From Candidatus Gottesmanbacteria bacterium (GTDB lineage Bacteria > Patescibacteriota > Microgenomatia > UBA10105 > UBA927), in NCBI GenBank assembly GCA_016218255.1, contig JACREN010000002.1, positions 4,029 to 68,028 of the forward strand: a DNA stretch of 64,000 nt. The letters are read 5' to 3'. The position numbers and the translations under genes are program-made. The notes under the pieces were generated by a model, which saw only the letters and a program-made list of their open reading frames with translations, was not told the DNA's origin and did no database searches. Below, piece after piece: positions 2,386-62,571 of the stretch (positions are counted from its first letter, which is position 1; every line of letters begins with the position of its first letter).

Positions 2386-2395
2386 CATAACTGCA

Positions 2396-4372: not shown

Positions 4373-4935
4373 TGCTTGGCATTCCGAATGGCAGCAGTCG
4401 TCTGAAATGAAGCGCTCGCGCGGTCGAATTGGTCCGGCGGCGTGCCCTTTTGCGCCAGACTAAAAATAATCGCCACCGTCGCCGGCTGACCTGCCGGCAT
4501 CGTACAGACAAACGTCAGACTGGAAGCATTGCAATCCGCTCCACCGAGCGTCAATGCACTGTCCGTCAGATACTCTGTCGTAGAAGCACTTACGGATGCA
4601 ATACGAGTCACGGTACCGTCCAGGAGACATCCCAAAGAGGTAGATTCGCCATCAGGATTTGTCAACGTGATACTGGACGATGAAGTCCCGCCCTCCGCAC
4701 ACGTCGAGGTCACTTCCGTTGCATTCCGAACAAGCTGATATATTCGCTCGAGAGAAAAATCACCGTTCTGTTTTACATTCTTTAATACTTCTGATTTTGC
4801 ATTGCTTCGGGTCGTGGTAAAAAATACCTGAGAAATCAAAACACCCACGACAGCCACAATGCCGATCGACACCATGATCTCCAGCAGAGTAAATCCCTGT
4901 TTTTTCCATGAATCATGAACATTTTTTATCGCCAT
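4369..4935 (-). CDS. type IV pilin-like (pseudopilin) with prepilin N-terminal cleavage/methylation motif
   Basis: N-terminus KKQGFTLLEIMVSIGIVAVVG (G-1, F+1, E+5) followed by hydrophobic helix; 4-bp overlap with neighbours. Confidence 0.75.
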   Translation of the reverse strand: MAIKNVHDSWKKQGFTLLEIMVSIGIVAVVGVLISQVFFTTTRSNAKSEVLKNVKQNGDFSLERIYQLVRNATEVTSTCAEGGTSSSSITLTNPDGESTSLGCLLDGTVTRIASVSASTTEYLTDSALTLGGADCNASSLTFVCTMPAGQPATVAIIFSLAQKGTPPDQFDRASASFQTTAAIRNAKQ

Positions 4936-5366
4936 CTTGTAAAGTTGGTTGTGAGCTCGCTTTTATGTTCACCCCGGCCGTCATCCCATGCCACTTTCGA
5001 TGCAACATTCATAACCGGATCAACCCATGTAAAAGTAAGGCTTCTTATGTAGATGCTGTCGACATTCACTGGACATACACTATTAGCAGATGCAGTCAGG
5101 ACATTTGTTTTATCCAGACAATAGACACCGCTTTTTTCTGCAAAACCGGTCCACCCGATATTGCGGAGGTTTCTGGCATACTCTATGCCTTCCTGAGAAT
5201 ATTTTAAGGCCAAACTCCTTGTTTTCCCCTCGTTGATATTCCGAAGCGATGCGGTCGTACCGACAATAATACCCGTTACTAACACTGTAACCACGCCAAT
5301 CACGACTACCGCCTCAACAAGCGATTGGCCAGACTGACCGGATGTTTTATAGAAATCCCAGATCAT
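4926..5366 (-). CDS. type IV pilin-like minor pilin
   Basis: N-terminus SGQSLVEAVVVIGVVTVLV (G-1, E+5) class III signal; 146 aa. Confidence 0.6.
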   Translation of the reverse strand: MIWDFYKTSGQSGQSLVEAVVVIGVVTVLVTGIIVGTTASLRNINEGKTRSLALKYSQEGIEYARNLRNIGWTGFAEKSGVYCLDKTNVLTASANSVCPVNVDSIYIRSLTFTWVDPVMNVASKVAWDDGRGEHKSELTTNFTRWR

Positions 5367-5829
5367 TTATGTCTCCTCCGGTTGAAACCTGTATGCGGTA
5401 TGATTTTACAATTCCGACCATTGTAATCGTTACCGCATCGCTTGAAAGCAGTCCCCGGGTTAACACGCCATAAACAAACGAGGCGGGCACAGGCGAAAAC
5501 GTAATTCCTGAGGGCAACGCGGTAGAAAGCGCATCTCCTACGGCGCCTTCTGTGCACTCTGCAACAACCGTATATGTCGAATCCGTAAATTGTACGGTAT
5601 ATCCCACAAGCTCAGTGCACCCGCTGGTTGGTTTTTTCGATGAAGCGGCAAGCGTCTGGGCATAACGAAGATTATTTTTCATCGTCAGGGCTGCCTGCTT
5701 CAAGCGCTGATTATCATTGTAATTATTATAATTAACGATAAGCCCGCCAACCGCAAGAAGTGAAATACCGATCGTCACGATAAGCTCTATGAGAGTAAAC
5801 CCAGAACGAGATGCAAAAAGCCGCTTCAT
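5347..5829 (-). CDS. type IV pilin-like minor pilin
   Basis: N-terminus RSGFTLIELIVTIGISLLAVGG; 160 aa. Confidence 0.75.
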   Translation of the reverse strand: MKRLFASRSGFTLIELIVTIGISLLAVGGLIVNYNNYNDNQRLKQAALTMKNNLRYAQTLAASSKKPTSGCTELVGYTVQFTDSTYTVVAECTEGAVGDALSTALPSGITFSPVPASFVYGVLTRGLLSSDAVTITMVGIVKSYRIQVSTGGDINDLGFL

Positions 5830-6266
5830 GGACTCTTGACCCCGAAATTATGGGCTGGGGTCTGCGATGCATCAGGGGTGCAGCTGTTACTTGCGGGCGT
5901 TTCTGCTTCAAGGTACGCGCTTACACAGTAGCCGTAATAACTGCCTCCCGAAACATCAGTTGCTTTATACCGGTATACATAATCGGGATCTTTTGGGTCT
6001 GCTGGGATAGACGGCATGTAGGTAGCCACTAAATCAGCACTTAAATTAGACATATCCGTCCAGCTACCGGCCCCGGTACTGGGATAATACCCATTGTCGG
6101 TTCGGTACATCTCGATAGCCGACCGGATCTGCTCGACGTCGCTTTTCCGCTTTGTATCACGGGATCTACGGTTTACCGATCCATACGATACGATACCTAT
6201 AGCAGTCAATATTGCGATAATAGATATCGCAACCAATATCTCCATGAGGGTAAATCCTTTTTTCAT
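5826..6266 (-). CDS. GspG/PulG-like pseudopilin
   Basis: MKKGFTLMEILVAISIIAIL...RDTKRKSDVEQIRSAIEMY (T2SS-G-like N-domain). Confidence 0.75.
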   Translation of the reverse strand: MKKGFTLMEILVAISIIAILTAIGIVSYGSVNRRSRDTKRKSDVEQIRSAIEMYRTDNGYYPSTGAGSWTDMSNLSADLVATYMPSIPADPKDPDYVYRYKATDVSGGSYYGYCVSAYLEAETPASNSCTPDASQTPAHNFGVKSP

Positions 6267-6268
6267 AA

Positions 6269-6712
6269 TTACTGAGCGCTTTTGACGCAGTACAACCCCG
6301 TGTATTCACTTGGTGCTGCGGCAGCTGCACAGTCCGTCACCTCATTGGCTTCTCCCTCAAGACCAGCACAAACACAAAAACTTGCAGCACTACAACTGCT
6401 CCATCCCGTGACCGTTGTGTAATCTGTTCCGCTCTTGGGATCAGTCGGCATACCGTTTGGCAAATATGTCACCGCCAGAGTGCAGGTAGCCGGATATGAT
6501 CCTTTATTGTCTGCATAATACTGCTCAAAACCATTCTGCACTTCCTTCAGATCGTTTTTTCGTCTGTTATCACGCGCCTTCTTTTGCCCTGTGGTATACG
6601 CCGAAACTGCGATCGAAACTAAAATCGCAATGACCGATACCGCCACCAATAATTCCATAAGACTAAAACCTATAGAATGTTTCCCCACCATGCGAGTATT
6701 TGAGTTTTCCAT
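6269..6712 (-). CDS. GspG/PulG-like pseudopilin
   Basis: GFSLMELLVAVSVIAIL...ARDNRRKNDLKEVQNGFEQYY; start moved to internal Met so it does not run into pilD. Confidence 0.7.
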   Translation of the reverse strand: MENSNTRMVGKHSIGFSLMELLVAVSVIAILVSIAVSAYTTGQKKARDNRRKNDLKEVQNGFEQYYADNKGSYPATCTLAVTYLPNGMPTDPKSGTDYTTVTGWSSCSAASFCVCAGLEGEANEVTDCAAAAAPSEYTGLYCVKSAQ

Positions 6713-7413
6713 AATATGGTGATAACGGTTCCTAAAATCAAAAAAGGACCGAATGCAACCCGGCTTTTCCACGTTTTATGTCTAGCTTTCATCAGTATGA
6801 CACCCACTCCAGCGCCCGTCAAGAACGCTGCATACAGCGCCACAACGATGCCTGGATACCCCAAAAGCAGCCCGAGCAGAAACACAAGTTTTACGTCTCC
6901 CAGTCCCATTCCTCGTCCGCCAGTCAATAACCAAAGAAGCAGAAAGAACACGGACGCTCCAAACGCGGAAATCCAAAAAACCTGCGCATGACGGACGTCA
7001 AAAACCGACCCAAGAAGACCTACTCCGATAATCCCCACCACCACCATACTGTCCGGAATTATTTGATATTTAAGATCTGCAAAAAAAATAACAATCAATG
7101 AGCAAAAAATAAGAACATATGCTGATAATTTGGTAATCGAATCAGCAAAATAAAAAAACAGCAATGCGAAACCAACACCAGTCAAAAGTTCAATGGCGGG
7201 ATACTGTAGCGAAAGCTTTTTGTGACACCGACGGCACCGGGCGAGCTGGATCACAAACGATACGATTGGAATAAGTTCGTACCACCGGAGCGTTTTTTTA
7301 CAATGATCGCAATGTGACCGACCATATACCACAGATTGCCCCTTTGGTAGCCGGTCGATAAGGACATTAAGAAATGATCCTATACATAACCCAAATAATC
7401 CTGCCAACCACAT
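6670..7413 (-). CDS. pilD: prepilin peptidase (A24 family) PilD
   Basis: N-terminal Zn-binding CIGSFLNVLIDRLP...SHCDHCKKTLRWYELIPIVSF, multi-TM A24 core. Confidence 0.85.
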   Translation of the reverse strand: MWLAGLFGLCIGSFLNVLIDRLPKGQSVVYGRSHCDHCKKTLRWYELIPIVSFVIQLARCRRCHKKLSLQYPAIELLTGVGFALLFFYFADSITKLSAYVLIFCSLIVIFFADLKYQIIPDSMVVVGIIGVGLLGSVFDVRHAQVFWISAFGASVFFLLLWLLTGGRGMGLGDVKLVFLLGLLLGYPGIVVALYAAFLTGAGVGVILMKARHKTWKSRVAFGPFLILGTVITILWKTQILAWWGNIL

Positions 7414-7443
7414 ACATATATCATACCATGATATACTTCAGCC

Positions 7444-9633
7444 ATGAAACGCGATGCATGGGCGCTTCTTGTCATATCTACGTGTGCAGCCGCATTTTTT
7501 TTCCGGCTGTTCTGGCCTACACCTCTTCTTCTCGTCACACCTGATTTCGGCAGAAGTGATGCATGGCATTTTACCTTTGTCACTAAATTCCTCTTGGGAA
7601 AAAATCTGACTGGGGGAGCACTCCCTATCTGGATACCGGAGCTTGGACGCGGATTTCCGCTTATGGCTGAAGGGCAAACAGGGACATTTTATATTCCTAA
7701 CGTGCTTCTTTACCGATTTTTGGACAGCGTGACCGCATACAATGCATCAATTCTTCTGACAATTCTGTTTTTGGGGTGGGGTATGTATATGTGGGTTCGC
7801 AGAATGAACTGGAGCCGGATCGCCGGATTATTTGCTGCTCTCTCGCTTATGTTTTCCGGCATGACACTGTCGCAACTCCCACATGGCGCGCTTCTTCAAG
7901 GCATAAGCCTTCTTCCGTGGGTACTCTACCTAACACTTCGCCTTTTTCAAACTAAATCCCGTTCTGCAATAGCTATTTGGGCTTTTATCTACTCCCAGCA
8001 GTTGCTTACCGGGTTTCCCCAAGCAGCATTTATCACTATCCTTTTTTCGTTTGCTTACGGCGCATGGCTTCTTCAGGAAAGCTCAACCAAAACAATGGAC
8101 AGCATACGGTTTCTACTCGCATGTGCTGCATCGCTGGGTCTCTCCGCGGTTCAGATTCTGCCGTCATGGGAATTTTTGAATCAGACCACGGTCGCCGGAG
8201 GCATGACTTCGGACGTATCCACATATTTTTCCTACCCGATCAAGCATCTGGCGACGCTCTTGGAACCATTTTTTTTGGGCAATCCAAAATTCGGTACCTA
8301 TCCACCTTTTTTTGCATTTGACGGAAGCATTTTCTGGGAAAACGTCGGCGGCATTGGATGGATTCCTGTTAGTCTCGCCATTATCACCATGATGAAATTC
8401 AGATCCAAAAATATTGCTTTTTTTGCTCTGTCTGTACCGATATCGCTTCTTCTTATGCTTGGTAAATATTCTCCGCTATACCTGGTCTATTCATTTTGGC
8501 CGTTTCATTTATTCCGTGTCCCTTCACGGTTTATTTGGATATTTGTTCTCTCAATCATCATGATTGCATCCTATGCCATCCACCGGATTTGGCGAAACGG
8601 GCGGATCCAAAAAATCGGCGTTCTGGCTGCTATTACTCTACATACCGCAATCTTAACAAACACCTGGTTCTCCTACCAAGCATTTGAACCCGCACACCTC
8701 TGGCTCACACCTCCTGAGGCAATTTCAAGACTACCGAATGATCCAAATATATTTACAGTCGGCTCGGAACCAATACACAACCAATCCTTTCTGACAAACG
8801 GATGGAAATCTATGAAACCCTATACATCACTTCGTAACAGCCTTGCCCCAAACAGCAGCAGCATATGGGGCATCACTTCTGCCAATGTCTACGCGGGTAG
8901 ATTTCTACGGCGACCGAGTATTCTGGCAGAATTCATTGACCATGAGTTTCCCGTCGATAGCCGGGAGGCCACACTCTCAGCGGTGGGGAAGAAGCTTCTA
9001 ACAATATCAGGCATTACTTCAGTTATCGCGGCGGTTCCGCTCACGCAATCTGAACCACCATATCTGGAAAAAATCACAACCCATGACACACTGACCCTCT
9101 GGAATAATCCTGAAGCTGTCCCCAGAGCCTATTTAGCCGACCGAGTCCATGTGGCAACGACCAAAGAGAAGGCATTCGGGATCTTACGCCACGAGGATTT
9201 TATTCCCGGCAAAAGCGTTCTTTTAGAAGACCCCATACATGTGGGCCAAACTACGGATAAGCCAACCGGAACAGCTCAAATAACCGACCGGTCAAACACA
9301 ACACTCACCATATCCGTGAAGGATAACAATCGAGATACAGTTCTCATCGTAACCGATACGTACTATCCCGGCTGGAAGGCGATACTCGACGGATTTGAAG
9401 TGCCTATATTTCCTGCAAATATCCGCCAACGGGGAGTCATCGTACCACCGGGAAACCACACGATACAAATGCGCTATGAACCAAAGAGCCTATTTTTGGG
9501 ATTTGCTATCAGTGTGGTGACGCTCTTACTTCTTGTTATCTTAATGGTGTTTCTTCCTTCTTCTTCAGATCCTCATACTCTTGCAACAGATGCTTCGCCC
9601 GGCCCGCATCGCCCACACAGTCGCGCATCGTGA
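7444..9633 (+). CDS. YfhO-family polytopic membrane protein (GT-C-like glycosyltransferase)
   Basis: 729 aa, about 13 TM helices followed by C-terminal extracytoplasmic domain; YfhO-like architecture. Confidence 0.55.
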   Translation: MKRDAWALLVISTCAAAFFFRLFWPTPLLLVTPDFGRSDAWHFTFVTKFLLGKNLTGGALPIWIPELGRGFPLMAEGQTGTFYIPNVLLYRFLDSVTAYNASILLTILFLGWGMYMWVRRMNWSRIAGLFAALSLMFSGMTLSQLPHGALLQGISLLPWVLYLTLRLFQTKSRSAIAIWAFIYSQQLLTGFPQAAFITILFSFAYGAWLLQESSTKTMDSIRFLLACAASLGLSAVQILPSWEFLNQTTVAGGMTSDVSTYFSYPIKHLATLLEPFFLGNPKFGTYPPFFAFDGSIFWENVGGIGWIPVSLAIITMMKFRSKNIAFFALSVPISLLLMLGKYSPLYLVYSFWPFHLFRVPSRFIWIFVLSIIMIASYAIHRIWRNGRIQKIGVLAAITLHTAILTNTWFSYQAFEPAHLWLTPPEAISRLPNDPNIFTVGSEPIHNQSFLTNGWKSMKPYTSLRNSLAPNSSSIWGITSANVYAGRFLRRPSILAEFIDHEFPVDSREATLSAVGKKLLTISGITSVIAAVPLTQSEPPYLEKITTHDTLTLWNNPEAVPRAYLADRVHVATTKEKAFGILRHEDFIPGKSVLLEDPIHVGQTTDKPTGTAQITDRSNTTLTISVKDNNRDTVLIVTDTYYPGWKAILDGFEVPIFPANIRQRGVIVPPGNHTIQMRYEPKSLFLGFAISVVTLLLLVILMVFLPSSSDPHTLATDASPGPHRPHSRAS

Positions 9634-11500
9634 TGCCTTCGTACAAATAAAGGGTTGGCTGTACCCGCGCAAGATCAGTTTCCCTAGCAGACCGAAAATG
9701 ATCCAATGCAGATGAGCAGTCTTTTAAAAACAGATCCGTAAGACCTGCATACGCATGCGCGTCACTTAGCTGGGTATCACCATCAGTATATATCGCCTTG
9801 GCAAAATACCGTTTGGCATCATCAAGCTTACCGATCCGAAGGAGCGTTTTGCCAAATTCCACCCCTGCACCCGCGTAGACATCCAGTACATCTGCAAGCA
9901 TAAGATGGCGGTAGCGTGCAAGAATACCTTTTTGAGGATCATGATACTGTTCCCACCGCACATTATTAACCGCAAGTACTGAATCCGTAGACGGCGCATC
10001 AGTGAGTCGCACCAGACGGTAAATTAATCCTTCCTGCACCCATGCTTCACCGGCTGAAACCGCCAGGGGATATACTGAAAATATCGGAAACCGGCTCCTG
10101 TTCATCGCGATAAAATCAGTCAAAAACGACTCGCCGGTTTTGGACGGAACGGATAATTTTGGAAAGACACGCGAAAGAACTACTGGATAATCTGCAGTCG
10201 CAAGTCTAGATGCGTGTATGACCATCACATCCGGACGCCGGCCCAATGCATACCGGACATATTGTACCGTAAAAAGCGGTGTATCCCGAGATACAAGCAG
10301 GATGCTGTCGGCATCCACACCCGCAAGAATATCATATGCCAAGGCATCAGCCGTTCTGTCATTTGTGACACCCTGGAACTTCCACATTGTCGCACCCATA
10401 ACCTTCATGGGATAAATAAGCATCAAAATCGCAAACACCCAAAATAACAATGTATTTCGCCGCACTAATTGTAAAGACTGCCAGTATCCCAATCCGATGA
10501 GCACGGAAAAAAGAACATACGAAGGAAGTAAAAACCGCTCATATGTACCCAAGGTAAACCTGTTCGCGAGCGGAAAACTCGCATAAAAGAAAAATACAGG
10601 CCCCAAGGAAATAAGGCCAATCACCAAAAACCAAAACAAGCCTCGCTTGTGGATCCAACACCATACAAAGCCCAATAAAAGAAGCAGTACCCCGACTGTG
10701 GTAAGGTCCAGGACGAGGAATTGCCCATAGGCTTTTAACTGTGTCATTCGCTGGGACAACAATGTGCCGAATGCATTACCGGATACAAACGTACCGTAAT
10801 CTGCGCGGGTGACCAACCGGACAAAGGAGGAGATATCCACAGGCCGATTCCAATTTATAATGGATGGCCCGTGGCCGGCTATCGGAAGATATACATATGG
10901 CAATAATCCGATCAACACATAAAAAGGCAAACGGAAAAACGTGTGCCGATCCAACAATTGCTTGTGAATATATATCCAATACAGCAATGCAGGAACAAAA
11001 AATAGTATGACGTGATGATGACTTAGTGATAATCCAAACACAAACAAAGCCCAATGAAAATATACGGGCTTTTTTGTTTCAGACCAATAAATAAACAGGG
11101 AAAAGAGCAACACAAGGAACAAATCAAAAAGTCCGAACACTTCGGGCGTGATGCTATAGAGAAAAAAAAGATAATTACCGGCGAGTACCAGCGCGGCAAA
11201 AAAACCGACAAAGGATTTTCCTGTAAACCGCGCCGCAAGCGCATACACGATAGTCACAGTTGCAGCGTGGGTGAGAGACGAAAGCAAGCCAACTCGCCAT
11301 GCCGGGGTAAACCAAGGCAACCAATTCAAAAACCAGCCCAACAACGTGTACAACGGATACCCAGGCGGGTGGGGTACGCCAAAGGTCGCAGCCGCCGTAA
11401 CCAAATCTCCGCTGTCGCCGCCAAAAATACCCTTTGTCTGAAACAAGAGAAACAAAAGAAAACTCGCGGCAAAAACAAAGAAGGAAAATCCGCGACCCAT
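9536..11500 (-). CDS. DUF2723 (TMEM260/PMT-like GT-C fold) membrane glycosyltransferase with C-terminal TPR
   Basis: N-terminal motif FGGDSGDLVTAAATFGVPHPPGYPLYTLLGW typical of DUF2723; multi-TM; C-terminal TPR-like repeats; start chosen at Met overlapping pilin stop (ATGA). Confidence 0.65.
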   Translation of the reverse strand: MGRGFSFFVFAASFLLFLLFQTKGIFGGDSGDLVTAAATFGVPHPPGYPLYTLLGWFLNWLPWFTPAWRVGLLSSLTHAATVTIVYALAARFTGKSFVGFFAALVLAGNYLFFLYSITPEVFGLFDLFLVLLFSLFIYWSETKKPVYFHWALFVFGLSLSHHHVILFFVPALLYWIYIHKQLLDRHTFFRLPFYVLIGLLPYVYLPIAGHGPSIINWNRPVDISSFVRLVTRADYGTFVSGNAFGTLLSQRMTQLKAYGQFLVLDLTTVGVLLLLLGFVWCWIHKRGLFWFLVIGLISLGPVFFFYASFPLANRFTLGTYERFLLPSYVLFSVLIGLGYWQSLQLVRRNTLLFWVFAILMLIYPMKVMGATMWKFQGVTNDRTADALAYDILAGVDADSILLVSRDTPLFTVQYVRYALGRRPDVMVIHASRLATADYPVVLSRVFPKLSVPSKTGESFLTDFIAMNRSRFPIFSVYPLAVSAGEAWVQEGLIYRLVRLTDAPSTDSVLAVNNVRWEQYHDPQKGILARYRHLMLADVLDVYAGAGVEFGKTLLRIGKLDDAKRYFAKAIYTDGDTQLSDAHAYAGLTDLFLKDCSSALDHFRSARETDLARVQPTLYLYEGITMRDCVGDAGRAKHLLQEYEDLKKKEETPLR

Positions 11501-12009
11501 TACTGGACGCAGAAGTAGCAGTCGGTGCCGCCGGTAGAAGTCTGCGACTTGCACCCGCTGGAGACTACTGCTCCATCTGTGCTATACGTCGTGTTGGTAT
11601 CGATCTGAAAAGATTTGGACTCCGGCTTGAAACAGACTGCCATATGCTCGGGAGCAGTCGAGGTGACCAGGACTTTCGCCAAATTCCCTGTTCCTGCCAG
11701 ATCCATAAACCGATTTTTGAGTTCTCCGGCGTTGATAAGATCAGTAACGTAGCTGCCCATCGTATCGACCCCTGATGCCGTAAACGATGAGCTTGTTCCC
11801 CAAGGAAAATTTCCCTTGGTGGCATAATAGCGGAGATTCGCGTTATAAAATTCTGCCGTGGTATTTCTCAGTGATGTATCACGACCTTTTTTCAATTGCT
11901 CAAATGGATCAATCGTTGCCAATAGTCCTACTGCCAAGGCACCCAGTAACGCAATAACGATAAGAAGTTCAATGAGGGTGAATCCTTTTTTGAGGTGGGC
12001 AGTATTCAT
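11500..12009 (-). CDS. pilA: type IV major pilin (PilA-like)
   Basis: MNTAHLKKGFTLIELLIVIALLGALAVGLLA; C-terminal Cys-rich segment (GCKSQTSTGGTDCYFC). Confidence 0.8.
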   Translation of the reverse strand: MNTAHLKKGFTLIELLIVIALLGALAVGLLATIDPFEQLKKGRDTSLRNTTAEFYNANLRYYATKGNFPWGTSSSFTASGVDTMGSYVTDLINAGELKNRFMDLAGTGNLAKVLVTSTAPEHMAVCFKPESKSFQIDTNTTYSTDGAVVSSGCKSQTSTGGTDCYFCVQ

Positions 12010-12054
12010 AGGTCTTCTTTAGGTGTAACACACACCAAAAACAATTGTCAAGCA

Positions 12055-13266
12055 CTACTTAAACTGACTGGTGAGATTGTAAATGGGCGTAATAACGGAT
12101 ATCACGATAAATCCTACACCGACGCCCAATACGACCATAATAAGCGGCTCAATGGCAGTGGTCAGACCCCTGACAAGGTGCTCAGATTCCGATTCAAAGT
12201 AACGGGATAGCTTGGTAAGCGTATCGTCCAGCTTCCCGGTTTCCTCTCCCACTTTCATCATCTGCGACACAATCGGAGGAAACACCTCATACTGGCCGAA
12301 CGTTTCACCAAGGGGAAATCCTTTTTCCACTTTCTTGGCAATTTCACTGATTGCCTCGCGGAATAAGACATTACCAAGCGAATCCCGTAAGATATTGAGT
12401 CCTTCCAGGATATGTATACCTGCGGTAATAAGCATTGCGAGCGTTCTGGTAAATTCCACCAGAATAATTTTTTTCTGGAGCTCCCCAAAAAGAGGAATGC
12501 GGAGAATGAGGCTGTCCACCAGGTGTTCGCCGACAGACGTTTTTTTCCACCTCATAAATCCGATAGTCCCGCCGACAGACACCAGGATAATAAGCCACCA
12601 AAAATTCACAAAAAATCCGGACAGGGTAATGAGTACCTGAGTAGATGCAGGGAGCGACATCCCGAAATCCTTATACAATTCCGTCAATTTCGGGACAACT
12701 ACGGTCATCATGACCATAACAACCGCCATCATACCGATGACAATGATAACCGGGTAGATCATAGCGCCGGATACTTTGCTCCGGAATTCCCGCTGCGCTT
12801 CCAGTGTCTCGGCAAGCCGCAAAAGCACCTTATCGAGGGTACCCGATGATTCACCCGCATGCACGAGCGCGATATAAATATTGGAAAAATTTGCCGGATA
12901 CTTTGCCAATGAGTCTGCCAAATTACCGCCGCCCACGATCTGGTGTTCCACGTCCAAAAGAATCCGCGCGAATGCCGGATTGGTCGTCTGCGTACGCAAA
13001 ATCGTCAGGGCATCCGGAAGCGAAAGCCCTGCCACAATCATTGTCGATAATTGACGGGTAAAATTGACGATATCACCGAATCCGACCTTTTTGAATTTTG
13101 CCAATAACGCAGACAGCGATAAGTGTTCCTTGGATTCCGTCAATTTAATAACAAAAAGCTGTTTGTCGCGCAATAATTTCGTCGCAACATCACTACCAGG
13201 AGCTTCAACAAGACCGGAAATCGTTTTCCCTGATGTGTCCCGCGCTTTATAGGAAAAAAATGCCAT
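12055..13266 (-). CDS. pilC: type IV pilus assembly platform protein PilC (GspF family)
   Basis: 403 aa, two GspF repeats, 3 TM; N-term MAFFSYKARDTSGKTISGLVEAPGSDVATKLLRDKQLFVIKL. Confidence 0.85.
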   Translation of the reverse strand: MAFFSYKARDTSGKTISGLVEAPGSDVATKLLRDKQLFVIKLTESKEHLSLSALLAKFKKVGFGDIVNFTRQLSTMIVAGLSLPDALTILRTQTTNPAFARILLDVEHQIVGGGNLADSLAKYPANFSNIYIALVHAGESSGTLDKVLLRLAETLEAQREFRSKVSGAMIYPVIIVIGMMAVVMVMMTVVVPKLTELYKDFGMSLPASTQVLITLSGFFVNFWWLIILVSVGGTIGFMRWKKTSVGEHLVDSLILRIPLFGELQKKIILVEFTRTLAMLITAGIHILEGLNILRDSLGNVLFREAISEIAKKVEKGFPLGETFGQYEVFPPIVSQMMKVGEETGKLDDTLTKLSRYFESESEHLVRGLTTAIEPLIMVVLGVGVGFIVISVITPIYNLTSQFK

Positions 13267-13271
13267 ACCGG

Positions 13272-14324
13272 TTAATATTTAAGTAATCTTCCCAGCTCTT
13301 CCGGCCGCACCGCATAGGCTGTCGCTGTTTCTGCACTGATTTTGCCTTCCTTTACCGCGCGGGCAAGCGATGTCTCAAGGGTCATCATGCCCAGCTCTGC
13401 CGATGTCTGGATGACGTTGTCTAAAAGATGTGTCTTGCCTTCCCGAATCGTGTTTCGTACTGCAGGAGTTCCAGTAAGGACTTCTGCCACTGCCACACGG
13501 CCTCCTGCCACTGCAGGAACCAGTCGCTGGGAAAAGACTCCTTCCAGAGCAAAAGAGAGCTGCAGCCGCACCTGGCCCTGCTGGTTCTCCGGAAATACGT
13601 CCACAATACGGTCAATCGTCTGCGCCGCAGAATTTGTGTGCAGCGTGGCAAAGACTAAGTGTCCGGTTTCTGCTACAGTGAGCGCCGCCTGAATCGTTTC
13701 AAAATCACGCATTTCTCCCACCAGCACCACATCCGGATCCTCCCGCAGGACGCTGCGAAGCGCTACCGTCCAGGAATGCGTATCCTGATGCATTTCGCGC
13801 TGGGAAATGATGGAGAATCCCGGCGGATACACATATTCAATCGGGTCTTCAATCGTGACAATATGCGTCGCCTTTGTCTGATTAATGCTTTGAATCATCG
13901 CAGCCAGTGTCGTGGATTTTCCGTGCCCGGTCGGTCCGGTAACTAACACCAGCCCCTGACGCAATCCGACGAACTGTTTGCAAATAGTAGGGAGCCCCAA
14001 CTCATCAATCGATCTGATTTTTGATGGGATGAGCCGAAAATCCGCAGCTACTGTGCCTTTTTGATAGTAAACATTCGCACGAAACCTGCCCACCTGGGTG
14101 GCCACGGAGTAGTCGATTTCTCTATTGGTCAAAAACAATTCCTTTTGCTGGGGAGTAAATGTGGCAAAAACAAGCTGCTCCACGTCGGAAGGGGTCAGTG
14201 CTCCCGTTCCACCGATCGGCCCAAGTTTTCCTGAGACCCGAAGCATGGGTGCAAACCCAACGAGCAAATGGAGGTCTGCCGCTTCCAACCTGGCTGTTTC
14301 CGTAAATAATTGTTGTATATCCAT
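13272..14324 (-). CDS. pilT: twitching motility ATPase PilT
   Basis: Walker A VLVTGPTGHGKSTTLAAMI; PilT-type ...IVTIEDPIEY...; 350 aa. Confidence 0.85.
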   Translation of the reverse strand: MDIQQLFTETARLEAADLHLLVGFAPMLRVSGKLGPIGGTGALTPSDVEQLVFATFTPQQKELFLTNREIDYSVATQVGRFRANVYYQKGTVAADFRLIPSKIRSIDELGLPTICKQFVGLRQGLVLVTGPTGHGKSTTLAAMIQSINQTKATHIVTIEDPIEYVYPPGFSIISQREMHQDTHSWTVALRSVLREDPDVVLVGEMRDFETIQAALTVAETGHLVFATLHTNSAAQTIDRIVDVFPENQQGQVRLQLSFALEGVFSQRLVPAVAGGRVAVAEVLTGTPAVRNTIREGKTHLLDNVIQTSAELGMMTLETSLARAVKEGKISAETATAYAVRPEELGRLLKY

Positions 14325-14325
14325 A

Positions 14326-16068
14326 CTAGTCCTGTGCTACCCTTAGCACTTCTTCAAGCGTTGTCACGCCTTCGATCGCCTTCATGTAGCCGTCCTGCTT
14401 CATCGTTATCATACCGTCATTGATCGCCTGATCTTCTATAGTTTTCATCGGCGTGCGGGCCAATATCAGTTTACTGATTGCCTCAGTCACTGGGAATACC
14501 TCAAACACACCCAACCGCCCGAGATATCCAGATCCGCCGCAGGTACCGCATGGCTGGCCGTCCACCGTTCCTTTGCCCCGGTATAGCTTGATCGGTTTAT
14601 CTTTTTGAAGCAGATTTCCAAGAACCGACGCGATATCTGTTTTCACTGATTCCTCAGGATCATATTCTTCCCGGCACGTCCCGCACACGCGACGGGCGAT
14701 ACGTTGACCAATCACTGCATTGAGGGCAGATGCCACCAAAAACGGCTCAGCGCCCAAATCAAGCAACCGTGGCACCGCACCTGCCGCATTATTTGTGTGG
14801 AGCGTAGAGAAGACCAAGTGTCCAGTCAGAGCAGCCTGTATAGCTAAATCTGTCGTTTCATTATCGCGGATTTCTCCCACAAGAATGATATTCGGATCCT
14901 GCCGCAGAAATGAACGTAATCCCGTCGCAAACGTCAATCCTGCTGTCGGATTTATCTGCACCTGATTGACACCGGCGATTTCGTACTCGACCGGGTCTTC
15001 AAGCGTCATGATATTCACCCGCGATGTATTGAGCTTGGCAAGCACAGCATAGAGCGTCGTGGTTTTGCCGGACCCGGTAGGTCCGGTGACCAGAATAATG
15101 CCATGCGGCCGGAGTACATTTATTTCAAGATTCTTAAGCGCCGTCCCGCGGAGTCCCAACTCCGGAAGCGTCGGAATTCCACCGGATTTCTTCAGCAAAC
15201 GCATGACTATCTTTTCCCCATGGACTGTCGGCAGTGTGGATACACGGAGGTCCACCTCAGAATCACCCATTTTGAAATTAAACCGTCCGTCCTGAGGAAT
15301 ACGTTTCTCGTCAATTTTCATATCCGCCAAAATCTTTATGCGCGATACCACTGCTTCCCGTAATCCCCGGGGAAGCGCAAGTCTCTCCTGCAAAATACCG
15401 TCAACACGATACCGCACGCGGGTATCTCCAATCTGCGGCTCTATATGTACGTCTGATGCACGAAGCCTCATGGCTTGCTCTAAAATCGCGGAAACAATCT
15501 GAGCGATCGGCGCCTCCCGTATGACCTCGCCGAGTTTCCCTGCCTCGTATGTCTTGACCGAAAGCGGAGCAGTCTCAGCCAGCGCCGCAGACACATCCTC
15601 ACCCAAATTTTGGGTATAGACATCTTCAATCGCTGATACAATGTCTTCCTTTGTACCCATAAACGGCAAAACGTGCTTGGCTGACTTTTTTTCCAAAAAC
15701 TCAATCACCTGAAAATCCAATGGATCGAGCATCGCAACAGATAACTCGCCCTTCTTTTCATCAAATGAAAAGGGGACAAGCGTATAGCGCCTCGCGACTG
15801 CTTCGGGGATAAAATTAACAGCATTTGGAGCTATGGCTTTGCCGGCAAGTATCACGAAGGCAATACCCATGGCTTTCGCCCTGGCCGCAACCAGATCGTC
15901 TTCTGTCACCATGTGTTTACGAATTAGTAATTTATCGAGGGCCTCTCCGGAGCTTAAAGACTCCGAGTTAATGGCGTCCGCCTGTTCGCGGGTAAGATGT
16001 TTTTGTTCAACGAGAACACTTAATAAATCAGCACTTGAGGCAGGCATACAAACAAAATCAAAAGGCAA
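14326..16068 (-). CDS. pilB: type IV pilus assembly ATPase PilB (GspE family)
   Basis: N-terminal GSPII_E_N-like domain, Walker A VTGPTGSGKTTTLYAVL, tetracysteine CGTC...CGTCGGSG. Confidence 0.85.
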   Translation of the reverse strand: MPFDFVCMPASSADLLSVLVEQKHLTREQADAINSESLSSGEALDKLLIRKHMVTEDDLVAARAKAMGIAFVILAGKAIAPNAVNFIPEAVARRYTLVPFSFDEKKGELSVAMLDPLDFQVIEFLEKKSAKHVLPFMGTKEDIVSAIEDVYTQNLGEDVSAALAETAPLSVKTYEAGKLGEVIREAPIAQIVSAILEQAMRLRASDVHIEPQIGDTRVRYRVDGILQERLALPRGLREAVVSRIKILADMKIDEKRIPQDGRFNFKMGDSEVDLRVSTLPTVHGEKIVMRLLKKSGGIPTLPELGLRGTALKNLEINVLRPHGIILVTGPTGSGKTTTLYAVLAKLNTSRVNIMTLEDPVEYEIAGVNQVQINPTAGLTFATGLRSFLRQDPNIILVGEIRDNETTDLAIQAALTGHLVFSTLHTNNAAGAVPRLLDLGAEPFLVASALNAVIGQRIARRVCGTCREEYDPEESVKTDIASVLGNLLQKDKPIKLYRGKGTVDGQPCGTCGGSGYLGRLGVFEVFPVTEAISKLILARTPMKTIEDQAINDGMITMKQDGYMKAIEGVTTLEEVLRVAQD

Positions 16069-31618: not shown

Positions 31619-33289
31619 ATGCATCCTGAAACCTTAACTCAACGCATAGCAATTATGGGCGAATCCGCGGACTCCGACAGACCACCTGTTTCATCACACC
31701 TTCCGGACATCGTTGAGACACCGATCACAAATAGTAATCCGTATTACGACTTCAATGACATCCTTGAACCTGCCATAAAGAAATATGCCGCTGCTTTCGG
31801 AGGCGGCGGACCGGGAGAGCCTACTGATACAGAAAAAAGCGCAAGACACTTACATTTTATTCTCACCACCAAAAGACAACTCAGTACGGACTGGGATCAT
31901 ACCATCGTTGATAGCAAACCGATTTTTGATGATGATATAAAAATAACCGCAAGAGAAGGGTATCTGCCAATTGAATTAGAGAATATCGACCTCCTATGTC
32001 TATTGGCATTAACGGGAACAGCAGTGAATATAGAAACCGGAAAAGGAGCTAACGCATGGCGCTGGGCAATGTACATCCAAGAGCGATTGGATCTTATTGC
32101 CACAAAATTAGGAAACAAAAGGCACGACAAACTTGGCAGCCCATTTCACAACAGACTTCTAACGCTTCATGACAACCAACCAGTAGTCTTTACCTACACA
32201 TCCAGCAATGGAGCCAGATCTATTGATCTCTTATCGAATCAAATCATTATAGACAAGCCTATTCCGCTTACCGCCTGGGAGAGACTCCAGAAACATGGCG
32301 ATCTTCTTCGTGACTCAACGCTCCCACAGCAATTGGAAAGAATACAAAAACGCCGCAATCATTTTGGAAGCGTGACACTGGACTCTCCGGTTATGACCCC
32401 ACGCGTAAAATATGATGAAACTAAAGATCATTATGCGCTGGATCGGGTTAAGGGCATACAGGTACCAGTCACCAATCAGGTGTCACCAGACAATTATGAA
32501 CCTATTATTCGATATCAAGATCTAACCCGCGAGGTCGACCAGCAACTGTCAGAACCCGAGCTCAATCACCGCATGCAGCTCCAGGCAGATATCCGGGATT
32601 TTGCGGTCTTTATCGCAGGAGAAAGCACAAAAGCAAACCTGGTTCTAGATATTCAAAAAATCAAAAATGATCCAACGCTCAATTCCCGTTGGGAACAAAC
32701 AACCGGCATTCATATAACCGATAACGCGACGCTCTATCACGCAGTCCAAGCTTTGTTTAGAGATACCGGAGTCAAAATTTTTCAGGCACATGCACAGGGA
32801 ATCACCTATTTCGATATCGGTGCAATAGACAAACAAAATAGTTCTCGAAAGGTAAAAAATTATACCCAGGGCCTTCTGCGATGCTGGATGAGAGAGATAC
32901 ACGGAATAGAAGACGAATCCGTAGCGCCGGAAATCCCAAAGTTTTTCACAACAAGCCTGGGCGATGCACCTCCAACGACTGAGAATGAATTTACCAACGA
33001 TGCCCCAATGATAAGCCATACCGGAGGGGTAAACGTCGGACCGTTTGATGATACACAAATTAAAAAAAGAAACGGTTGGCCAATGAATCTCAACGCGCTG
33101 TGTCCACAAGCAAAAAATATACAACTCACACACTGGTATCTGATGCAACTTCTTGTGGGAAGTGTGCAGGAACAATACCTTTCAAAGACAGTCGATGCGT
33201 TTATTGCTATCCTTGCATCGCTCCGACAAGAAAGAAGAACGGCTTTGAAAGAAACATCTGTAATTGGAAAAACATCTAGTGTACAATAA
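31619..33289 (+). CDS. hypothetical protein, 556 aa, no recognisable domain
   Basis: Long intact ORF, soluble, no TM/signal; overlaps downstream hexokinase-family gene start; divergent from 30993-31439 operon. Confidence 0.55.
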   Translation: MHPETLTQRIAIMGESADSDRPPVSSHLPDIVETPITNSNPYYDFNDILEPAIKKYAAAFGGGGPGEPTDTEKSARHLHFILTTKRQLSTDWDHTIVDSKPIFDDDIKITAREGYLPIELENIDLLCLLALTGTAVNIETGKGANAWRWAMYIQERLDLIATKLGNKRHDKLGSPFHNRLLTLHDNQPVVFTYTSSNGARSIDLLSNQIIIDKPIPLTAWERLQKHGDLLRDSTLPQQLERIQKRRNHFGSVTLDSPVMTPRVKYDETKDHYALDRVKGIQVPVTNQVSPDNYEPIIRYQDLTREVDQQLSEPELNHRMQLQADIRDFAVFIAGESTKANLVLDIQKIKNDPTLNSRWEQTTGIHITDNATLYHAVQALFRDTGVKIFQAHAQGITYFDIGAIDKQNSSRKVKNYTQGLLRCWMREIHGIEDESVAPEIPKFFTTSLGDAPPTTENEFTNDAPMISHTGGVNVGPFDDTQIKKRNGWPMNLNALCPQAKNIQLTHWYLMQLLVGSVQEQYLSKTVDAFIAILASLRQERRTALKETSVIGKTSSVQ

Positions 33290-33296
33290 CCTCGAT

Positions 33297-34373
33297 ATGA
33301 TGAAATTTTCTACCCTCCAAACCATTACCGATAATTTTTATAAAGAGCTCCAATTGGCAAAAGCCGGAAAAAAAACGAGCCTGCCGTTTATCAAACACCA
33401 GCTTTCACTCACTCCCAAAGTAAAAAAAGGCGAGGTATTTCAGGTGCTCCGCATCGGCGGATCCATATACCAAAATGCACTGGTGAAACGGATCAACGGC
33501 AAAATCGCCATCGAGCGAAGTGCCCAGCGGCCATTGCCGGTATTTAGAACCCAGGAAATTTTTCTCTCCTTCATCGATCGGGTACTGGATAAATCCGTCA
33601 ATCATCTGGCACTCAACTTCGCCTATCCCATGAAGCCGCTATCCCGTGACGGGTATCTGGACGGTACGCTGGTATCAGGCAGCAAAGAACATGAATTTGC
33701 AGGCCTCGTGGGCAACGCAGTAGGAGAGACGATTGAACGATATATCAAAGACAAACAGAAGCGCACGATCCATACGGCTCTAGCCAATGACACAGTATGC
33801 CTGCTTCTGTCCGGGCTTACCCAATTTCCAAAAAACAATCTCGTCGCCGGCATCATCGGCACCGGACTCAATTTTGCGATATTCTTAGATGAACAAACCC
33901 TCGTCAATTTGGAGTCGGCAAATTTTGACAAATTTCCACAAAGCCAGGAAGGCAAACTCATAGACCAGGGATCCAATCACCCGGGGTCGTCACTGTTTGA
34001 AAAAGAAATTTCCGGCGGCTATTTATACAAAAACTTTAACATCCGCTTAGCCAAAGAAGGACTGGGGTACCCGAACGTTTCTTCAACCAAAGAAATGGAC
34101 AAGGTAGCCTTTAACGACATCCCCAAAGTGTCACTGCTTGCCCGTGAAGTATCTGAACATTCTTCATCGCTCGTGGCCTGCCAGATAGCTGGCATTACAA
34201 AATTGTATAACCGCGACTGCACGGTCGTTATTGAGGGCAGTTTATTCTGGAAAGGGTACCGGTACAAAGAAAACGTCGGCGTCGTATGCCGCCAGCTTGA
34301 ACCGGATCACCAGGTCTCCTTCGTCTTCGTCGAAGAAAGCGGGATTTTAGGAGCAGCGAAACTCATTTCGTGA
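33297..34373 (+). CDS. hexokinase-family sugar kinase
   Basis: Hexokinase signature blocks: VLRIGGSIYQNALV (phosphate-1), LALNFAYPMKP (LGFTFSFP-like), HTALANDTVCLLLSG (connect-1), AGIIGTGLNFAIF (phosphate-2), SGGYLYKN (adenosine). Confidence 0.7.
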   Translation: MMKFSTLQTITDNFYKELQLAKAGKKTSLPFIKHQLSLTPKVKKGEVFQVLRIGGSIYQNALVKRINGKIAIERSAQRPLPVFRTQEIFLSFIDRVLDKSVNHLALNFAYPMKPLSRDGYLDGTLVSGSKEHEFAGLVGNAVGETIERYIKDKQKRTIHTALANDTVCLLLSGLTQFPKNNLVAGIIGTGLNFAIFLDEQTLVNLESANFDKFPQSQEGKLIDQGSNHPGSSLFEKEISGGYLYKNFNIRLAKEGLGYPNVSSTKEMDKVAFNDIPKVSLLAREVSEHSSSLVACQIAGITKLYNRDCTVVIEGSLFWKGYRYKENVGVVCRQLEPDHQVSFVFVEESGILGAAKLIS

Positions 34374-59423: not shown

Positions 59424-60392
59424 ATGTCCCCTCGTCTGTCTGCTTATCTCATGCTTCTCATTGTTTCCGTCATCTGGGGGGTCGCAGGACCGGTCATCAA
59501 ATTTACGCTTCACGATTTTCCGCCGCTTATCTTTCTCTCGTACCGGTTTGCCATAAGCGGGGTCATTGCCCTCGTCTATTTTGCCACGACCAAAACGCGC
59601 TTCCCGTCTAAACCAAAAGATATTGGTCTGGCAACGATATATAGTATATTTGCCGTCACATTGGCACTGGGACTTCTCTTTTTTGGTTTTGACAAAACAA
59701 CCTCACTCACCGGCACTCTACTCTCTGCCATGGCGCCCATAATCGTCGTCGCCGCCGGAGCTATTTTTCTCAAAGAACACGTCACGAAAATCGAACGTGC
59801 AGGCATAACTATAGCATTTGCCGGCACACTCATAACCGTCGCAGGGCCCCTCTTTAGCGGATCATCAGGATCCGTGCTGGGATCGCTCGAGGGAAACGGC
59901 CTTATCATTCTCTCCATTTTTGTCGATGCCGTGGCGACATTAGCTGCAAAAGTCATGGTCCGAGACCGATTTTCACCCACCACTCTGACGCATTTTTCTT
60001 TTATTATCGGGTTTGTCAGCATCTTTCCGTTTGCCCTTATGTCCCACTCTTGGCCAGCAATTCTTCAGACTATTCAAAAAGCGCCTATTACCGCCCATTC
60101 TGGAATCTGGTTTATGGCAATAGCATCCGGCACACTGGCATATTCGCTCAGAAACCGAGCACTCAAAACCATAGAGATGGGAGAAACTACGGTATTTTCC
60201 TATCTCTACCCCATCTGGGCCGCACCGCTTTCAATTTTTTGGCTTGGGGAAAAACTCACGGTTCCGTTTATCGTGGGTGCCTGCATAATCGCCGCAGGCG
60301 TATACATAGCCGAAAACAAACGACGCCATAAACACAGTCCGAAGCGCGCCGTCTTCCATGCACGGCGAAGATATGGTAAAATACACACATGA
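59424..60392 (+). CDS. DMT-superfamily (EamA-like) transporter
   Basis: 10 TM helices in two EamA-like halves. Confidence 0.7.
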
Positions 60393-60697
60393 AACAAGGC
60401 ATTCATCCCCAGTGGTATCCTGGTGCAACAGTTGTCTGCGCATGCGGCAACAGCTTCACAATCGGCGCAACCAAGCAGGAACTCCGCGTGGAAATCTGTT
60501 CCAAATGCCATCCTTTCTTTACCGGTGAAATGAAATTTGTCGATACACTGGGCCGCGTTGAACGCTTCCAGCAAAAGCAAAAAGCTGCAGTGTCCACCGC
60601 CTCCGCACTGGCTGCAAAGAAAAAGAAAAAAGCCGAACGGGAAGAACAACGCCGATCTCCGAAATCCCTCAAAGACATGTTAATGGGACTTAAATGA
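60389..60697 (+). CDS. rpmE: 50S ribosomal protein L31 with extended Lys-rich C-terminal tail
   Basis: [23 protein letters not shown]...[10 protein letters not shown]; 102 aa (typical about 70). Confidence 0.85.
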
Positions 60698-61392
60698 ACT
60701 CTGATGTCGCCATTCTCGAATTTCGACCCGGGCCGGGAGGCGAAGAAGCCCGCATATGGGCCAGTGACCTCATGCGCATGTATACACGCTATGCGAATGT
60801 CCTGGGCTGGAAGGTAGAGCAAATAAGCGACACCGCCATCCGCATCCGCGGAACGGATGCCTTCACCAAGCTCCAATATGAAGCAGGCACCCACCGCGTC
60901 CAACGGGTTCCGGTAACGGAACGGCAGGGCCGCATCCATACGTCCACAGCAACGGTGGCGGTACTGCCGGAAATACCCGAAACTGAAGTGCAAATCCGGA
61001 ATGATGATCTGGATTGGAGCTTTTTCCGTGCAGGGGGACATGGCGGTCAAAACGTAAACAAGGTCTCTTCTGCAGTACGATTGACACACAAGCCCACCGG
61101 TATCGTCGTAGCGTGTCAGACAGAAAGGGATCAAATACAAAACAGAAACGTCGCGCTCTCCATGCTTCGGGGGAAATTATGGGAACAGCAGGAGTTAATA
61201 AAAGCCAAAACGCTTAGCGACAACCGTAGTGTCATCGGACGGGGTATGCGCGCCGAAAAAATCAGAACCTACAACTTCCCTCAAAATAGAGTAACGGATC
61301 ACCGGATAAACAAAAGCTGGCATAATCTGGAAACAATTATCGAAGGCAAAATGCAAAAAATCACAGAAGCGATGATCGCGATGCGCGAGTAA
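60694..61392 (+). CDS. prfA: peptide chain release factor 1-like protein lacking N-terminal domain 1
   Basis: RF1-specific PVT tripeptide ([16 protein letters not shown]), GGQ motif ([12 protein letters not shown]), C-terminal [15 protein letters not shown]; only 232 aa; start overlaps rpmE stop so no room for domain 1. Confidence 0.75.
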
Positions 61393-61398
61393 GCCCCT

Positions 61399-62571
61399 TT
61401 ACTCCCCCTGGTTTCCCAGCGTCACCTTGACCAACCGGTCTTTACCGTCCCTCCATACAGAAATCGTCATAACATCTCCTGCTTTTTTCTTGGCGATCAC
61501 TTTCGCAAGTTCTGCATTATCTCCCGCAAGACGCACGTCATCTATTTTTGTAATGATATCCCCTTCCTCAATTCCGAATTGTTCCGCAGGGCTTCCGGCA
61601 ACGACCTCAATCACATACGCACCCTCCGGGATATCGTTAAGAATCCCCACATCGCGGGATACGGTTTTGTACCGTACACCCAGAAACGGCCGGTTAAACT
61701 GCCCGGTTGCGTTAAAATTCGCAAGCGACTCTTTAATCACATTGATGGGTATCGCAAACCCGATATTCTGCCCGTCGCCCGAAACCGCTGTATTCACCCC
61801 GATAACCTGCCCGGAAGAATTCAGAAGCGGCCCGCCGGAATTACCCGGATTGATAGCGGCATCGGTCTGAATGACATTGTCCAAACGCTCCACATATCCT
61901 TCAAAGGGGCTACCAGCCGTAATACCTCGCCCAACGCCTGAAATTACCCCGGTGGTCACCGTGTGCCGGAATTCCCCGAGCGCCGTACCGATAGCTATAG
62001 CCAACTGACCAACTTTGATGCTATTGGAATCACCCAGCTCAACCGGAGATAATCCCGACGCAGTGATCTTAAGAATTGCCAAATCATTGGCCGGATCCCG
62101 GTAGATTTTCACCACATCAAATGACTTGTCATCTTTGGTGATCACTCGGTATTTTGCCGTGGCATCTGCCACCACATGTTTATTTGTCACAATCAACCCA
62201 TCGGCCCCTACAATGAAACCGGAACCAATGTCCTGCTCCAACTTCTGCGTTTTTCCCGGTGTCCTCCGGAATGGGGAAAACGGGTCAAACGGATTGATCT
62301 CCAGCATATCGCCTAACTGCCGGGTTTTTGTAATGCCCACGGTCACCACCGAGGGAGACACACGTTCTACTGCATCAATAACGACTGACTCTTCCGTAAC
62401 CACCCGGATATTTTCGCTGCCAGGAAGCGTAACTGAAGATTTGGCAAAATCCGGCAAACGGACGTACTTTTCCAAAAATTTCCAGTTAAGACCGAAAATA
62501 CCGGAACTTACGATGCCGCCGACAATAAGAAAAGCTGCTGCAACCAGAAGGAGTGTTCGATGAATTTTCAT
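61399..62571 (-). CDS. HtrA/DegP-family S1C serine protease with PDZ domain
   Basis: Signal anchor, catalytic GNSGGPLLN, C-terminal PDZ. Confidence 0.9.
   Translation of the reverse strand: MKIHRTLLLVAAAFLIVGGIVSSGIFGLNWKFLEKYVRLPDFAKSSVTLPGSENIRVVTEESVVIDAVERVSPSVVTVGITKTRQLGDMLEINPFDPFSPFRRTPGKTQKLEQDIGSGFIVGADGLIVTNKHVVADATAKYRVITKDDKSFDVVKIYRDPANDLAILKITASGLSPVELGDSNSIKVGQLAIAIGTALGEFRHTVTTGVISGVGRGITAGSPFEGYVERLDNVIQTDAAINPGNSGGPLLNSSGQVIGVNTAVSGDGQNIGFAIPINVIKESLANFNATGQFNRPFLGVRYKTVSRDVGILNDIPEGAYVIEVVAGSPAEQFGIEEGDIITKIDDVRLAGDNAELAKVIAKKKAGDVMTISVWRDGKDRLVKVTLGNQGE

Follow-up and report, generated by a model that had tools for sequence, protein, structure and literature searches.

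Domain 1 of release factor 1 (RF1) is helical, flexible and to a large extent independent (PMC1586002). It touches the N-terminal domain of uL11 and a C-terminal domain of bL12, and docking on these two proteins has been proposed to aid RF1 binding (PMC6076264). Helices α2 and α3 contact the uL11 N-terminal domain and α2 faces RF3 (PMC3677378); a direct contact between domain 1 and RF3 was reported in PMC3677378 and not observed in PMC6076264. A laboratory form without this domain has been described: as related in PMC1586002 and PMC6076264, E. coli RF1 lacking domain 1 (Mora, Zavialov, Ehrenberg and Buckingham, 2003, Mol Microbiol 50:1467) keeps its codon specificity, supports release in vitro and works in vivo, and by the account in PMC6076264 RF3 is still able to recycle such variants. 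Here we analyse a natural gene of this architecture, the prfA gene of a Candidatus Gottesmanbacteria bacterium, which encodes an RF1 of 232 residues without domain 1. The gene lies in a stretch of 64,000 nucleotides (assembly GCA_016218255.1, contig JACREN010000002.1, positions 4,029 to 68,028 of the forward strand), which we call the window and whose numbering we use throughout. An initial annotation, made from the sequence alone, had taken domain 1 to touch both the ribosomal stalk and RF3; the uL11/bL12 contact stands, and on RF3 the published record is divided as described above.

We consider it likely that this gene is the orthologous, working prfA of its genome, and that domain 1 was lost in full by evolutionary deletion. 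As the truncated E. coli RF1 is active, termination by a short RF1 without the stalk is plausible. RF1 without domain 1 is widespread in the Candidate Phyla Radiation (CPR), with examples in hundreds of uncultured relatives, and not peculiar to the window.

The short prfA gene and its product

The gene occupies 60694..61392 on the forward strand, begins with ATG, and encodes domains 2, 3 and 4 only. That it is an RF1 homolog of 232 residues without domain 1, as first proposed, was borne out by profile searches, in which the Pfam PCRF model was matched from position 101 and two NCBIfam prfA models from positions 105 and 113. The PCRF match (PF03462, model 101–194 of 194, 6e-33) covers the domain 2 part at residues 5–88 (60706..60957), and the RF-1 domain, which is domain 3 (peptidyl-tRNA hydrolase; PF00472, model 2–116 of 116, 9e-38), covers residues 96–204 (60979..61305). 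Aligned with solved RF1 structures (E-values from 1e-61 to 6e-78), residues 6–228 correspond to residues 111–345 of E. coli RF1 and 106–339 of Thermus thermophilus RF1, and residues 3–228 to residues 85–321 of Thermotoga maritima RF1; the starting point of about residue 108 of the E. coli protein given by the initial annotation is off by no more than a few residues. An AlphaFold2 model was of low quality (mean pLDDT, the predicted local distance difference test score, 63; pTM, the predicted template modelling score, 0.37; shallow alignment) and was not used.

The elements for reading the stop codon and for catalysis are retained. The RF1-specific tripeptide ‘anticodon’ PVT, at residues 73–75 (60910..60918), and the catalytic GGQ motif, at residues 117–119 (61042..61050), are both present in the sequence and the alignment, as the initial annotation had stated, and GGQ is invariant in 24 relatives. 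Residues G15-G16-E17-E18 (60736..60747) align in the structure–sequence comparison to G116–E119 of T. thermophilus RF1, which read U1 of the stop codon, and Q70, H82 and T83, flanking PVT, align to Q181, H193 and T194. The window protein is thus identical to T. thermophilus RF1 at G116, E119, Q181, P184-V185-T186, H193 and T194, the established stop-codon contact positions (P184–T186 for the tripeptide), as well as at GGQ. The alignment also revealed a 10-residue deletion in the domain 2 β-hairpin, at the S45/D46 junction (60826..60831), which had gone unremarked in the initial annotation.

Among NCBIfam models, the two for prfA ranked best: NF001859 scored 322.1 bits (model 105–341 of 347) and TIGR00019 317.6 bits (model 113–348 of 361). 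With about 105 model positions unmatched, neither score reaches its equivalog cut-off (400 and 423.25, respectively), and annotation pipelines therefore do not call the protein RF1; the NCBI entry for the identical protein, encoded on a contig of 71,085 bp, reads ‘PCRF domain-containing protein [Candidatus Gottesmanbacteria bacterium]’. The release-factor core, PxT with the codon-contact residues, GGQ and the genomic position of prfA were all found, and the absence of domain 1 and the low equivalog score have the same cause. RF2 does not fit, as the tripeptide is PVT and not SPF and the prfB model, at 211 bits, ranks under prfA; PxT is carried by all 390 related proteins collected. The match to PrfH reached 66.9 bits (cut-off 166.65) across the GGQ domain only, and the gene upstream is rpmE, not an RtcB-like gene. 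ArfB scored 51 bits (cut-off 100), with 36 residues matched (97–132), and the window protein has complete domains 2 and 4. As judged from these matches, the window protein is an RF1 by ancestry and probably by function, and is neither PrfH nor ArfB.

Directly upstream is rpmE (60389..60697, forward strand; Pfam Ribosomal_L31, 2.1e-27), encoding a bL31 of 102 residues with a Lys-rich C-terminal tail. As first noted, the RF1 start overlaps the rpmE stop in an ATGA (60694..60697, forward strand), with ATG at 60694 and TGA at 60695–60697, which suggests translational coupling of the two genes. The codon immediately 5′ of the ATG in the RF1 frame is TAA (60691..60693, forward strand), so an N-terminal extension is impossible without a frameshift. 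A promoter and terminator scan found no terminator-like site between rpmE and prfA, and its counts around prfA were no better than chance.

On the other side, prfA converges with an htrA-like protease gene (61399–62571, reverse strand), the two stops lying 6 nt apart (61390–61401) with no terminator-like hairpin between them. An antisense open frame of 245 codons (60403–61140, reverse strand) covers rpmE and prfA and exceeds prfA in length; a naive gene caller that picks the longest open frame chooses it over prfA.

Short RF1 across CPR lineages

The initial annotation had suggested checking whether the truncation is clade-wide, and the short form was found throughout the clade. The best 120 clusters of relatives at 90% identity (the best matches listed, of at least 120; from NCBI, ENA, JGI and Logan assemblies) all encode proteins of 230–256 residues, 85 of them exactly 232. 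In 115 of these 120 the start lies 12 residues ahead of GxGGxE, and M1 and N2 of the short RF1 are conserved among relatives. The gene order hisS-eamA-rpmE-prfA with convergent htrA-ctpA is identical in the window and in two contigs of 1.22 and 1.07 Mb (L081, L082). Carriers of the 232-residue gene include the complete or near-complete genomes GCA_040960095.1 (contig JBFOMS010000003.1) and ERZ25039480 (contig_74641). Between five prfA genes of the Gottesmanbacteria type, the proportion of synonymous differences (pS) was 0.80–0.87, which is saturated, and that of nonsynonymous differences (pN) 0.13–0.20; the short prfA is under strong purifying selection.

Alignment of 81 RF1 sequences defined a series of length classes. 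A complete domain 1 is found in proteins of 340–364 residues, from outgroups beyond the CPR and a few genomes of the Woesebacteria type. The first ~55 residues, which form helices α1–α2, are gone from proteins of 288–322 residues, which include many of the Levy-, Curtiss-, Woese- and Saccharibacteria types, and a domain 1 stub of about 20 residues remains in the 254–256-residue proteins of the Amesbacteria type. Finally, 28 sequences of 228–241 residues, from the Gottesman-, Woese-, Roizman-, Shapiro- and Blackburnbacteria types, have no domain 1. With α1–α2 gone, most of the CPR RF1 proteins sampled lack the helix that faces RF3, and the short class lacks the uL11 contact too.

The 10-residue hairpin deletion is common to Microgenomates RF1 proteins of 230, 300 and some of 340 residues, and is absent from those of the Curtiss- and Saccharibacteria types and from the majority of short Parcubacteria proteins inspected. 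Since it spans length classes, it arose before domain 1 was lost and independently of that loss. In neighbour-joining trees of this single gene (domains 2–4, 227 columns), the fully truncated forms made up several groups scattered among longer ones; among 100 bootstrap trees, the short forms made one clade in 1, and three or more all-short clades were present in 89. This scatter, taken with the implausibility of regaining domain 1, suggests that complete loss was repeated independently.

Some individual sequences depart from the common pattern. The 232-residue RF1 of Candidatus Microgenomates BS150m (L014) has P-Q-S in place of PxT near residues 74–76 (HRVQRVPQSEKRG), so that Ser replaces Thr at the residue reading the second stop-codon base. 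Another RF1 with a short N-terminus (L078) carries a basic, low-complexity C-terminal extension of 79 residues (RATERKIRRRKTKNVPCRF), probably because a stop codon was lost or the assembly carries a frameshift. In GTDB, many records bear taxon labels that cannot be relied on: numerous loci (L001, L005, L010, L011, L017, L046 and others) have a short RF1 of the CPR type with rpmE upstream in records titled ‘uncultured Gammaproteobacteria’, ‘Pseudomonadales’ or ‘Weeksellaceae bacterium’, and these look like placeholder or mis-binned taxonomy and not real occurrences outside the CPR.

A second family of short RF1 proteins occurs in Parcubacteria. A search begun from a 232-residue cluster representative (P0127) listed 120 matches, all of 230–255 residues, all with PxT, and all starting 7–22 residues before GxGGxE; several lie on contigs of 0.3–0.9 Mb. 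Named members come from Zambryskibacteria, Liptonbacteria, Colwellbacteria, Minisyncoccia and Paceibacterota (= Parcubacteria). Like the window protein, these keep GGQ and many are labelled ‘PCRF domain-containing protein’; they differ from it in sequence (the representative is 53% identical), in a hairpin that is mostly intact in the examples inspected, and in that rpmE is not adjacent. Most simply, they would represent a further independent loss.

One Parcubacteria contig of 898,885 bp (ERZ25039512 contig_54891; L204) shows RF1 and RF2 side by side. It encodes an RF1 of 248 residues at 10001–10747 and, about 5 kb away and adjoining ftsE-ftsX, a second gene with PCRF and RF-1 domains. This is prfB, encoding RF2 (3857–4904, reverse strand, with a +1 frameshift site, followed by ftsE-ftsX, and with a tRNA gene just upstream). 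An upstream open reading frame of 23 codons (MKEDIRQELQELATDARRLGGRL) ends in the classical frameshift site CTT TGA C after a G-rich stretch, and the protein beyond the +1 shift contains HRLVRISPF. When joined, the 349-residue product matches TIGR00020 (prfB) over model positions 2–352 of 353 with 363 bits (curated cut-off 370). In this organism RF1 lacks domain 1 and RF2 has all of it together with an autoregulatory frameshift; here the loss of domain 1 is specific to RF1. A metagenome scan for the pattern H-R-x-x-R-x-S-P-F-D-x3-R-R-H-T-S-F returned 120 RF2 loci, each encoding an entire domain 1 and a hairpin of the normal kind; no CPR RF2 was recognisable among them, the pattern being one that cannot match a loop of the SPFSPKKLRH type carried by L204.

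This RF2 has further peculiarities. Its decoding loop, SPFSPKKLRH, replaces the usual SPFDxxxRRH, and its domain 2 hairpin falls 6 residues short of that in every one of the 112 metagenome RF2 proteins, out of 120 sampled, for which it could be measured. Two related contigs (L206 and L207) carry a 16S rRNA gene on the opposite strand, 0.3–0.7 kb upstream of rpmE (2943–4454 and 1616–3145, respectively, both on the reverse strand), in the place where L204 carries prfB-ftsE-ftsX. An RNase P RNA lies 7–8 kb downstream of prfA in L204 and L206.

Explanations for the short gene and its genomic setting

The window provides a measure of the demand on RF1. Its 45 genes with Pfam support end in TAA (19), TGA (14) and TAG (12, or 27%); as TAG ends more than a quarter of them, RF1 activity is needed. 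This proportion of TAG is far higher than in E. coli, despite an RF1 without domain 1. UGA is read only by RF2, and from this standard rule the use of TGA implies that RF2 must exist in the genome. Annotation of the whole window found no second release factor in its 64 kb, and no prfB, prfC, prmC, rplK or rplL.

The reading that we think probable, that of a working prfA which has lost domain 1, carries several expectations. The short protein would be the sole RF1 of the genome and, given its intact motifs, should be active and terminate at UAA and UAG in the canonical manner. RF3 would be absent, and the recycling route that follows is likewise conjectural. The factor would be co-expressed with bL31 through the ATGA overlap, would enter the A site and read UAA or UAG with the unchanged head of domains 2 and 4, and would release the peptide with the unchanged GGQ domain. 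Lacking domain 1, it could not dock on the uL11 N-terminal domain or a bL12 C-terminal domain, nor present the helix proposed to touch RF3. We therefore propose that neither its recruitment nor its recycling can depend on the stalk or on RF3, and dissociation might be spontaneous or driven by subunit rotation. Relaxed selection following the loss of RF3 could explain the graded erosion.

Several points weigh against this account. By a reviewer comment in PMC1586002, truncated factors slow the growth of E. coli. The search for other release factor genes covered 64 kb, and a full-length prfA may lie elsewhere in the genome; no RF2 or RF3 of Gottesmanbacteria was encountered. The trees are neighbour-joining trees of one gene, which leaves the count of independent losses uncertain. 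The RF2 of L204, the sole CPR contig showing both factors, keeps its full domain 1. It follows that a history in which RF3 was lost and domain 1 became useless is not the whole story, and that a factor specific to RF1 is also needed; this may be the differing dependence of RF1 and RF2 on L11 (PMC1586002) or a constraint from the frameshift site of RF2.

Such an asymmetry is central to an adaptive alternative, in which the short protein is again the sole RF1 and domain 1 was lost by adaptive remodelling and not by relaxed constraint, the stalk base or GTPase-associated centre of the CPR ribosome having changed so that RF1 specifically ceased to use it and RF2 still does. The contig with a short RF1 and a complete RF2 preceded by a +1 frameshift site favours it, as do the reduced ribosomes of CPR bacteria (PMC9297842) and the opposite responses of RF1 and RF2 to loss of L11 in E. 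coli, known to us from a reviewer comment in PMC1586002 that cites Tate 1984. That contig is, however, a single one and from Parcubacteria, not Gottesmanbacteria, and so many intermediate lengths are more suggestive of drift than of one adaptive step. We regard adaptive remodelling as unlikely.

The initial annotation had left open whether the protein is a minimal RF1 or a second, specialised paralog. As a paralog, the short copy would have a side role such as rescue or regulated termination, with a full-length RF1 encoded elsewhere. The limited span of the search leaves room for a paralog, and the domain-1-less PrfH and the ArfB that the window protein weakly matches are accessory factors. 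Position argues otherwise. Among the best 80 loci in GTDB, rpmE lies directly upstream of prfA in most, across all RF1 length classes, so the 232-residue gene sits in the slot held by longer prfA genes in sister lineages and is the positional ortholog of prfA, not an added paralog. No assembly among those 80 loci has two RF1 loci, and a single copy was present in the 20 kb examined of each of the 1.07–1.22 Mb contigs. The residues that read the codon match canonical RF1, and the graded truncation series in the CPR points to erosion of one gene. The prfA slot, the clade-wide form, purifying selection and the retained codon-reading residues thus favour a minimal RF1, and an extra paralog seems distinctly unlikely.

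Domain 1 might instead be made as a separate small protein that acts in trans. Its flexible, independent helical character (PMC1586002) would suit such a split, and small helical open reading frames are hard to detect. We built a hidden Markov model (HMM) from 49 CPR domain 1 sequences, which detects the domain in every long form. It found nothing in the six frames of the 64 kb window (best E = 7.5) and nothing at E < 0.3 within 5 kb on each side of 28 short-form genes. A profile search of 5.8 billion proteins likewise gave no stand-alone domain 1 and one uninformative match, at a sensitivity that is poor for a short helical query. We consider a split gene highly improbable.

An artefact or pseudogene, from a mis-called start, a sequencing frameshift or decay, might be suspected in a metagenome-assembled genome whose protein NCBI names only by its PCRF domain, but is effectively refuted by the recurrence of the architecture across over 100 independent assemblies drawn from several sources, by the in-frame TAA, by rpmE-prfA gaps in relatives of −8 to +503 nt with no hidden domain 1 coding, and by strong purifying selection.

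The upstream frameshift that the initial annotation had advised checking for, as a possible cover for a missing N-terminus, is excluded by the same TAA and by the absence of a domain 1 signal in six frames. Two related ideas were rejected. Fusion of rpmE and prfA by frameshifting is incompatible with the TAA at 60691–60693 and with the spread of gap lengths. The other was that the Lys-rich tail of the window bL31, some 35 residues long, is a frame-shifted remnant of domain 1; bL31 measures 93–115 residues in CPR loci (81–88 in the Parcubacteria-type L204–L207) independently of RF1 length, which rules out a recycled domain 1 tail, and the HMM was blank there.

We are evenly divided on a wider claim, that RF1 in the CPR has repeatedly and completely shed domain 1 yet stays alone in reading a heavily used UAG, and that RF2 has not. 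It would apply to Gottesman-, Woese-, Roizman-, Shapiro- and Blackburnbacteria within the Microgenomates and, independently, to much of Parcubacteria; for the window organism itself, the asymmetry between RF1 and RF2 would be an extension from Parcubacteria. If the claim is true, termination at UAA and UAG occurs naturally without the uL11/bL12 stalk contact or the RF3-facing helix, and RF1 and RF2 differ fundamentally in their dependence on that part of the ribosome. Domain 1 appears to be dispensable in nature, and these bacteria offer a natural experiment on a domain whose role in docking and towards RF3 has been argued for the most part from constructs in E. coli and cryo-electron microscopy. 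Short clades beside relatives with RF1 of ~255, 300 and 345 residues supply ready proteins for kinetic and structural comparison, and the asymmetry, seen so far in one Parcubacteria contig, gives a handle on the differing response to the stalk. There is also a problem of annotation: with RF1 below cut-off and labelled by its PCRF domain, pipelines can report RF1 missing, which could bias marker-gene estimates of completeness and wrongly suggest reassignment of UAG in the CPR.

The remaining gene content of the window is ordinary for the CPR, including a type IV pilus cluster, glycolysis genes, gyrase, dnaB and hisS. The pilus cluster (4369–16068, reverse strand) encodes several pilin-like proteins with an N-terminal methylation motif, a prepilin peptidase (A24), a PilC-like T2SSF protein and two T2SSE ATPases, and is flanked by genes for an O-antigen-ligase-like protein and a YfhO-like membrane protein. 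A hexokinase-family protein (Pfam Hexokinase_1/2, mostly eukaryotic) is encoded at 33264–34373 on the forward strand.

Comparison with known release factors

Compared with canonical RF1 (PDB IDs: 2B3T, 4V63 and 1RQ0), domains 2–4 of the window protein align end to end, and PxT, GGQ and the codon contacts are alike. The window protein differs in lacking the N-terminal helical domain 1 of about 105 residues and in its shorter domain 2 hairpin, with no further difference.

Two groups of factors share part of this architecture. PrfH (RFH) likewise lacks domain 1 and keeps GGQ (PMC1586002). Its decoding region is different, as the initial annotation had stated, and it always lies downstream of an RtcB-like gene, whereas the window protein is encoded downstream of rpmE. 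ArfB, ICT1 and C12orf65 have the GGQ domain in common with the window protein; they have no codon-reading domains 2 and 4 and probe the mRNA channel with a C-terminal tail, in contrast to the complete domains 2 and 4 and the PVT of the window protein. The full-text literature searched, which excludes subscription journals and includes work on CPR ribosome reduction (PMC9297842), release factor evolution (PMC6514570) and reviews of Patescibacteria, did not describe any naturally occurring CPR RF1 that lacks domain 1.

The closest precedent, the truncated E. coli RF1 engineered by Mora et al. (2003), has a like architecture, RF1 without domain 1. It is, on the accounts cited at the outset, a laboratory construct in a host with RF3 and normal RF1, whereas the truncation in the window is natural, fixed in large clades, and apparently that of the only RF1. 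The biochemistry of a short RF1 is foreseeable; the scale of the loss, its recurrence and the apparent asymmetry between RF1 and RF2 are not.

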